Assembly: GCA_951406725.2 (NCBI GenBank)
Contig: OX597828.1
Location: forward strand, 76,942,001-77,006,000
Origin: Octopus vulgaris
Taxonomy: Eukaryota
DNA length: 64,000 nucleotides
Direction: 5' to 3'
Shown here: positions 20,031-21,567 of the stretch, piece by piece
Numbering within the stretch: the first letter of the stretch is position 1
Layout of the letters: every line of letters begins with the position of its first letter
Notes under the pieces: generated by a model
Told to the model about the DNA's origin: nothing
Seen by the model: the letters and a program-made list of their open reading frames with translations, nothing else
The model's database searches: none
Translations under genes and position numbers: made by a program

Positions 20031-21351
20031 CAACAGATGTCTGTGTATGTGTGAGTGTGTGCGCGTGCGTGTGTGTATGTGTGTGTGAGGCGAGATAAAA
20101 AAACAAAAAATATATGTATGTGTTAGTGTGTGCGTCTGTGTGTAGGCGTGTGAGGTAGGGCGAGACAGTAGTAGGCATAGCAGACAGTGGTCAGTAGTAA
20201 GAAAATGAAGGAAGGAGGAAGGGAGGGAGGGGAAGGGGTGGGGGCGTATGTAGCGTGCCAGCTTGTGTTGAGTAGTAGTGTGTGTGTGTGTCCAGTGTCG
20301 TGGTAGTATTAATGGCGAGTAGATTGAATGTGTGTAAGAGTAATGTATATATTTAAGCAATGTGTGTGTGTGAGTGGGTGTGTATATGTGTGCGCGCGTG
20401 TGTAACAAAAAAGGGGGGTTAAGGAAAAAGGACTCCAGCTGAGGGGAAGATGGAAGAGTGGTCCCGCGGAGACGGGCGTGGGAAAACCCAACGACAAGCG
20501 ACGGTCCCAGGAACGAGCGGGAGGTCTCGTCGGGTCCAAGAGCGAGGTGCATGCAGCGCGCATGCGTGCGCGAACCGGCGCAAGCTCGTGTGTGCGCGCG
20601 CCTGCGAGTATGCGCGTAAGTATGTATGTGTGTGGATGTGTGAGTGTGTCTGTGTGTATGTCTGGGTGTCAGTGTGTCCGATGAATGTATGTGAGTATGT
20701 GTGTATATATGTGTGTGCATAGATGTATGTCCGTGTGTGTGTGTGTGTGTGTGTGTGTATGTGTATGAGTGTGTATGTATGTACGTGTGGGTGTGTAGAA
20801 GTGTGTGTATGTGCATGTGTGTGCGCGTACATACAGGTGTGTGAGTGAGTGTGTGTGTGTATGTATGTGCGAGTGTGTATGTATGTGTGTGTAGGATGCA
20901 TGTATGTGTATGGGTGTATGTATGTGTGTGTGTATGTATGTATGTGTACGTATATACATATATACATATATACATATATACATATATATAGAGAGAGAGA
21001 GGGAGATAGATAGTCAGATAGATAAATACACACACACACACGTATATATATATATATATATATATATATAGGCGCAAGTGTGGCTGTATGATAAGAAGCT
21101 TACTTCCCAACGATATGGTTCCTGGTTCAGTCCAACTGTGTGGCATCTTGGGGGTCTTCTACTATAGCTTCGGGTCGACCAAAGTCTTAGTGGATTTAGT
21201 AGGCGCAAACTGAAAGAAGACCATCGTATATGTATATATATATATATATATATAAGTTCAGTAAAAATTTAGATTCAGTTGAAGATGGTACTGAAGTTAA
21301 AGGCACCAAAATTTGGTATGCTATTATCCATATAATTCAAAATGTGGGGAT

Positions 21352-21567
21352 TATAATCAAAATAAGCAACAATGATATCCAAAGGTAATGCAGTACGATC
21401 GTTTCATGCGACTCTTCAATTTAACAAAATTCTTTATTTATGTGCAGCTGAAGATTGCCCTACATTTTAAAATTGATCTAATACTTGCATTGTTTAATTA
21501 AATGGAGTCGCATGAAACGATCGTACTGCATTACCTTTGGATATCCTTGTTGCTTATTTTGATTATA
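21352..21567. repeat. Inverted repeat with 63-bp arms (21352-21414 / 21505-21567, 1 mismatch) and a 90-bp spacer
   Basis: tataatcaaaataagcaacaatgatatccaaaggtaatgcagtacgatcgtttcatgcgactc and its reverse complement. Confidence 0.95.
21442..21531 (+). ncRNA. Type I hammerhead ribozyme with canonical core
   Basis: gTGCAG-CTGAAGA(21448-21454)-tTGC...GCAt-GAAA(21514-21517)-CGATCG-TA-CTGCAt. Helix I has 5-6 bp, helix III is the palindrome ACGATCGT and the triplet is GUA. Helix II is short, with a U.U first pair and a long loop. Confidence 0.75.

Follow-up and report, generated by a model that had tools for sequence, protein, structure and literature searches.

A hammerhead-bearing palindrome inside an octopus SINE is likely a head-to-head pair of truncated Penelope-like ends

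In a 64-kb stretch of Octopus vulgaris DNA (hereafter the window), a short palindrome carrying a hammerhead ribozyme core lies inside a SINE, within its internal (TA)n, which raises the questions of what kind of element left it there, how its two halves came to face each other and whether the ribozyme can work in such a setting. We read the insert as two 5′-truncated copies of a high-copy repeat lying head to head in the SINE (TA)n, likely the pLTR ends of a Penelope-like element (PLE) and likely primed on both target strands, with a hammerhead that is predicted to be inactive. We give this reading a probability of roughly 0.78.

The insert spans 21254-21567 (314 bases) within a TA run. Its arms (21352-21414 and 21505-21567) have the length of 63 bp that a sequence-only reading of the locus had given them; they are complementary at 62 of 63 positions, the single mismatch being 21373/21546, and the palindrome folded with a z of -17 against 100 shuffles. 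Upstream lies a SINE head on the + strand (21072-21228), which we take to be tRNA-derived and of the A/B-box type, followed by the left portion of the internal microsatellite of the SINE (21229-21253); downstream, 21568-21895 (+) holds the remaining (TA)n/(TG)n and the SINE tail, the latter from about 21690. The nesting in the SINE (TA)n about 180 bp past the head was also confirmed, as the insert lies 182 bp from the start of the head and an uninterrupted SINE copy on the - strand (about 37471-37838) has (TA)n at the position matching the insert site. The head belongs to an old copy, with 79% identity to 37674-37838 (-), and ARAGORN returned 0 tRNA for the window. No target-site duplication was readable within the (TA)n.

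Four of 24 listed public runs (X1, X2, X7 and X13) were aligned to 21254-21567 at 80% likeness; X1, X2 and X7 carry the organism labels A, B and C respectively, and X13 was guessed to be RNA. No RNA run was listed as containing the sequence. The insert belongs to a high-copy family, with 3754 contigs in X1, 2801 in X2, 2250 in X7 and 111 in X13, the last being a family-level count that makes no statement on transcription of the insert locus. Out of 70 variant rows, 38 joints, 23 between-letter rows, 461 loose ends and 8993 aligned pieces, the analyses below used the best 40, 15, 12, 24 and 32 respectively. Five of these 32 pieces bridged 21351/21352 with at least 31 nt on each side, showing that the inverted copy extends over 21254-21414 (-) and includes a tail-like 3′ extension of 98 nt (21254-21351), present at this end only, that the sense copy lacks. 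The earlier claim that the arms carry the end of the element did not hold for the left arm, which continues 98 nt to 21254. The sense copy (21412-21567, +) is the less truncated of the two and carries the whole hammerhead, and its short 3′ end abuts the (TA)n. Both types of end exist in the family: directly behind 21563, (TA)n loose ends were found in at least 27, 24 and 19 contigs of X1, X2 and X7, and behind 21564 an element-like continuation in at least 21, 23 and 32 contigs respectively.

The two copies also differ at their 5′ sides. The left arm (21352-21414, -) is the more truncated: it opens within the 3′ side of helix II, holds GAAA and GUA as well as helix III and the 3′ side of helix I, and lacks CUGANGA. 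The sense copy starts at about 21412-21418: three of the best 32 pieces begin at 21417/18 and cross the core (21417-21525, 21418-21516 and 21418-21534), and loose ends before 21418 occurred in at least 15 contigs of X1 and at least 11 of X2. The head-to-head junction (21412-21417) tentatively includes a 3-nt overlap common to both copies (21412-21414), which fits the loose-end consensus of X2 (agreement 0.63) and fits that of X1 poorly. Outside the arms, 21415-21427 resembles 21490-21504; because family contigs assign 21418 onward to the sense copy, we read this likeness as an inner similarity of the element. Both arms have a minority letter in common (A21382/T21537, the other letter making up 64-100% and 64-92% of the depth), so they are likely to derive from one source.

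No piece across the insert's own junction was present among the best 32 of 8993, nor was an empty site seen, and among the listed runs the best contained 0.41 of the sampled words and none contained half, as might be expected if the palindrome were an assembly or library artefact made from a chimeric fold-back read. However, a single site separates the sequences of the two arms, the extension that one of them carries is correct for the family, and head-to-head junctions of the family occurred in three independent DNA-type runs, and we attach almost no credence to an artefact.

On the + strand, the type I minimal hammerhead occupies 21443-21530. Its core consists of CTGAAGA (21448-21454), GAAA (21514-21517) and GUA, with cleavage predicted after A21525. 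Helix I pairs TGCAG with CTGCA (21443-21447 with 21526-21530), helix III is the palindromic C-GATC-G (21518-21523), and helix/loop II (21455-21513) is about 50 nt long. The spacer between the arms was thus rightly said to contain TGCAG-CTGAAGA. The type I core positions (C3-A9, G12-A15.1, U16.1 and H17) and helices I-III are all in place, and a full hammerhead descriptor had its sole match here on both strands of the 64 kb, with no match in any of 100 block shuffles. The core had been called canonical, which holds for its letters and for the cleavage site at A21525 but not for positions 10.1/11.1, where there is a U·U (T21455/T21513) and not G-C. No variant at 21455 or 21513 appeared among the best 40 of 70 variant rows, and the loose-end consensuses retain both U residues; throughout the family, U·U appears to be the closing pair of helix II. 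PMC4209133 describes G10.1-C11.1 as highly conserved. We found no paper on U·U at these positions, and the supplements of PMC4209133 and PMC8557442 might list such variants. Elsewhere in helix II, C21459 is a rare letter, with T in 86-100% of the family depth. Rfam gave no hammerhead match at the gathering score, nor one within the 38 matches obtained when E values up to 10 were admitted, which may be explained by the long loop II and the minimal helix III. The matches that it did give in that range, to microRNA-type hairpins and to repeats and below the cut-off, were discarded as hairpin artefacts. For the - strand, no descriptor match to a hammerhead built from the left arm was obtained.

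A motif at 21274-21295 had been proposed as a collapsed third hammerhead. It is present as written, within the extension of the inverted copy, and we rejected the proposal, because the motif rests on two rare letters, G21284 and G21293, in whose place the family has T in 99.3-100% and 95.1-99.7% of the depth respectively, in four of four runs. Moreover, it is antisense to the copy that encloses it and is without helix II or GAAA, and a similar motif arose in 12 of 100 shuffles of the window. A rare subfamily bearing these letters (0-5% of the depth) may exist. Nearness to the real hammerhead made the motif look stronger than it merited.

Folding predictions point to an inactive ribozyme. Even with the upstream arm left out, the predicted hammerhead fold was some 4 kcal/mol less stable than the ensemble, with a P of about 1.6e-3. 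Because helix III is self-complementary, two arm-less copies could fold as a swapped double hammerhead, predicted at 9.0 kcal/mol below two monomers, and the hammerhead is therefore predicted to be dimer-dependent. The presence of the upstream arm raised the predicted penalty to 50.5 kcal/mol, and the bases of the 3′ arm were predicted to be captured by the upstream arm as they emerged (13/13, 21/21 and 27/27). These predictions support the suggested sequestration of the 3′ half by the upstream arm, which would keep the hammerhead of the sense copy from working. Transcripts of such loci, should there be any, are predicted to form long RNA hairpins and not active ribozymes.

Transcription from the SINE by Pol III read-through had been thought conceivable. 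No run of T5 or longer exists on the + strand of 21071-21900 and read-through is possible in that respect, yet nothing supports it, the SINE head being old (79%) and having three differences in the A-box region from the other window copy. As for the caution that T4 runs might terminate such a transcript, the first T4 downstream of the head (21465-21468, +) lies within loop II, upstream of GAAA. An ATG at 21502 lies in helix II, 24 nt ahead of the cleavage site, and opens a 26-codon hydrophobic frame (21502-21567, +) whose continuation on the inverted copy reaches 21337; in an anole element, according to PMC11167929, an ORF likewise opens in stem II, 26 bp ahead of the cut. We do not regard the octopus frame as a conserved ORF, as a stop variant was found in 39% of the X7 depth and its first 22 codons had no Pfam match.

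Which elements leave such structures? Passages of PMC8557442 and PMC8969392 describe for PLEs an inverted 5′-truncated copy beside the insertion, a tail at no more than one end and a bias towards (TA)n; PMC8557442 gives the tail as 30-40 bp and further assigns canonical hammerheads to PLEs other than Naiads and most Chlamys. PMC3846280 describes head-to-head palindromes in which the inverted junction shows an overlap and one of the inverted pLTRs bears a tail. The insert resembles the endonuclease-bearing (EN+) PLEs (Penelope/Poseidon, Neptune, Nematis and Hydra) in its inverted truncated copies, seen here and in 17 other junctions of the family, in the one-sided extension with two end classes, possibly their optional tail, in the overlap at the junction, in the (TA)n target, present both in the insert flanks and in the (TA)n loose ends of the family, and in a hammerhead near the 3′ end, which matches the minimal type I descriptor and for which cleavage is a prediction. 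It differs in that its copies are only about 160 nt long and have no coding region, and in an extension of 98 nt as against the printed 30-40 bp. Naiads have the (TA)n bias in common with the insert but are without canonical hammerheads, and so do not fit. Membership in the PLEs is likely. An autonomous EN+ PLE would be expected to encode a telomerase-like RT with a GIY-YIG endonuclease, and to have direct pLTRs around that ORF formed by partial head-to-tail tandems. No ORF with an RT or a GIY-YIG domain was linked to the family: a GIY-YIG domain was not found in the five frames scanned, and metagenome pattern scans gave 0 and 0 matches. Three ORFs of the window gave RVT_1 or zf-RVT; these belong to non-LTR retrotransposon remnants on the - strand that are unrelated to the insert, at 1228-3684 (RVT_1) and at 34277-35287 and 59052-59894 (zf-RVT).

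The hammerhead itself is of a type known from metazoan PLEs. PMC4209133 describes minimal, dimer-type hammerheads in pLTRs, which have an additional base behind position 9, a palindromic helix III and low in vitro activity, and which also occur as pairs on opposite strands, 100-700 bp apart. The insert has in common with these a helix I of 5-6 bp, a long helix II, a base after A9, palindromic positions 15.2-16.2 with loop 3, a predicted dependence on dimers and occurrence as dispersed single motifs. It departs from them in the U·U in place of G10.1-C11.1, in a helix/loop II of about 50 nt and in an opposite-strand partner that is only half a ribozyme.

Two other classes of element deserve comparison. 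Near-perfect inverted arms, a TA-rich target, a short non-coding size and a high copy number are features also expected of a non-autonomous DNA transposon (a MITE or foldback element) with 63-bp terminal inverted repeats, in which the hammerhead would be incidental. The arms, however, are not terminal, as 98 nt extend beyond them on one side; the inner junctions vary from copy to copy (17 distinct) and fixed terminal inverted repeats are absent; and the full descriptor is matched here and in none of 100 shuffles. We therefore consider such a transposon highly improbable. A broken non-LTR retrozyme, that is, a tandem hammerhead repeat amplified via circular RNA, would account for a type I hammerhead with a palindromic helix III, and retrozymes are likewise non-coding and related to pLTRs; a 2026 preprint derives them from the pLTRs of PLEs (10.64898/2026.07.22.740005). 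The preprint describes them as tandem units each with a hammerhead, in head-to-tail arrays, whereas the insert is a single head-to-head pair, the window holds no second copy and none of the best 15 of 38 joints of the family was head to tail. A retrozyme is thus very unlikely, if a little less so than the transposon.

How would a PLE give rise to the head-to-head pair? We suppose that a Penelope-type GIY-YIG endonuclease, suggested by the target and the literature, would nick the (TA)n, the SINE being a landing site only. Each nicked strand would then prime reverse transcription on element RNA, one from a nearer start, which gives the end at 21567, and one from a start lying about 98 nt more to the 3′ side, which gives the end at 21254. 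Both cDNAs would end early, at the positions observed, one 36 nt upstream of the core and the other inside helix II, and their ends may join via the few complementary bases at 21412-21414. The hammerhead, of the dimer-dependent type, would be an ordinary passenger of the pLTR, and in an emerging transcript the upstream arm is predicted to pair with GAAA, helix III and GUA into a 63-bp hairpin. The model for these steps is Poseidon PAc of Anolis carolinensis, which according to PMC11167929 has an AT-rich target and a protein that cuts and extends both strands, with two internal RT starts defining the tail, and whose insertion does not need hammerhead cleavage. The evidence for PAc was obtained in vitro for a lizard element, whereas the octopus family is known from sequence alone.

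The presence of two different 3′ ends favours priming on both strands. A palindrome of the same element could also arise through fold-back self-priming of one molecule, or through later fold-back repair, instead of two primings, and self-priming on an antisense template, not twin priming, is the explanation offered for head-to-head PLE palindromes in PMC3846280. The minority letter common to the arms and their difference at only 1 of 63 sites would agree with a fold-back, and the 3-nt overlap would serve it equally. However, fold-back of a single cDNA cannot give an inverted arm with 98 nt absent from the sense copy while the sense copy has 93 nt absent from the inverted arm; for this, the template would have to be antisense, or a deletion at a later stage would have to stop by chance at the natural family end 21563. 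Because each copy holds sequence absent from the other, we prefer twin priming, which we infer from one locus together with the end classes of the family, and regard a fold-back origin as possible but doubtful. A bolder version of the twin-priming account is about equally tentative: that these mini-palindromes are a direct record, in the genome, of a dimeric Penelope protein priming reverse transcription on both nicked target strands, with starts about 98 nt apart and microhomology-joined ends, and that the hammerhead is a natural variant which works with U·U as the closing pair of helix II. If this were true, a family of thousands of copies would tell which of the two applies, twin priming or the published self-priming on an antisense template.

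In its structure the insert is ordinary, as inverted truncated copies and a hammerhead are standard in PLEs. Its interest lies in what it could help to test: such palindromes fit within a single read and their two 3′ ends can be told apart, so that twin priming and self-priming could be set against each other; a passage of PMC8557442 states as open how PLEs make tandem and inverted insertions, and the term ‘twin priming’ was absent from the PLE literature that we found. Only PMC8557442 was found to combine hammerhead ribozyme, octopus and Penelope, and ‘hammerhead’ is absent from the main text of the cephalopod repeat papers PMC13282606 and PMC8967140. The ribozyme of the family may thus be undescribed, although supplements could hold it.

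A second palindrome in the window, at 3960-4553, had been grouped with the insert as unrelated in sequence yet built the same way, with breakpoints inside helix/loop II in both. The two indeed have no sequence similarity. In 3960-4553, the arms are perfect over 282 bp, U directly precedes GAAA as in the insert, the - strand core reads CTGAATC and not CUGANGA and looks broken, and a 91-bp tandem duplication is present at 3872-3962. A mechanism common to both is likely, namely the Penelope-like placing of an inverted 5′-truncated copy beside a less truncated one; its proposed tie to helix/loop II fared less well, as the junctions of the family show. At least 17 distinct other head-to-head junctions were tabulated (14 + 3, the best rows of longer sets), with the junction 21369/70 to 21540/41 of X1, X2 and X7 merged as one and the sole opposite-strand row left out. 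Their sides were 21-36 nt where given, with ends clipped at variant sites, and the sample is biased, since inverted copies extending 5′ beyond 21505 cannot register as skips.

Breakpoints directed to the ribozyme helix/loop II, through a pause of the reverse transcriptase or a ribozyme-linked step, with the SINE promoter driving a regulated transcript, would explain why both window palindromes break there, and would agree with the 12 of 34 junction ends in helix/loop II and with the steep climb in family depth over 21485-21506. However, 17 of the 34 ends lie 3′ of the cleavage site (and 5 in GAAA/helix III), and the ends are scattered across the 17 junctions. In only 3 of the 17 (4 if all intervening letters are assigned to it) does helix/loop II contain the more truncated end, which in 3 others lies in GAAA/helix III and in 11 (10 on a lenient reading) beyond the cleavage site on its 3′ side. 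In 2 of the 17 junctions an end comes to within 2 nt of 21526, the start of the cleavage product, and the one opposite-strand joint among the best 15 of 38 (21441/21521) breaks in helix III. Subfamilies diverge in loop II, with loose ends at 21466, 21485 and 21488, and this confounds the depth climb. A SINE-driven ribozyme, for its part, would have to overcome an old SINE, the T4 in loop II and a predicted block of 50 kcal/mol. We consider this explanation improbable, and conclude that the palindromes form without need of the ribozyme, with room left for a mild pause in helix II. The whole hammerhead core was kept in none of the 17 junctions; a palindrome draws attention as a ribozyme palindrome only if it keeps that core.

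Breakpoints seemed to cluster at 21497, 21510 and 21538, which we attribute to alignment clipping, since each cluster closely follows a variant site (21495, 21509 and 21537 respectively). The recurrence of the junction 21369/70 to 21540/41 in X1, X2 and X7 may reflect an old common insertion or a hot spot. Elsewhere in the window, a degenerate minimal hammerhead lies at 19716-19880 (-), with U4 changed to C, a 4-bp helix II and no helix III; its 3′ side extends to a (TA)n at about 19715, and it probably represents one more Penelope-like family, the third. At 19473-19500 (+), upstream of that (TA)n, lies a CTGATGA half core, for which no GAAA was seen by eye. Lastly, 51159-51712, which gave no hammerhead match, is flanked by microsatellites and holds inverted repeats that are nested and imperfect (about 81%).
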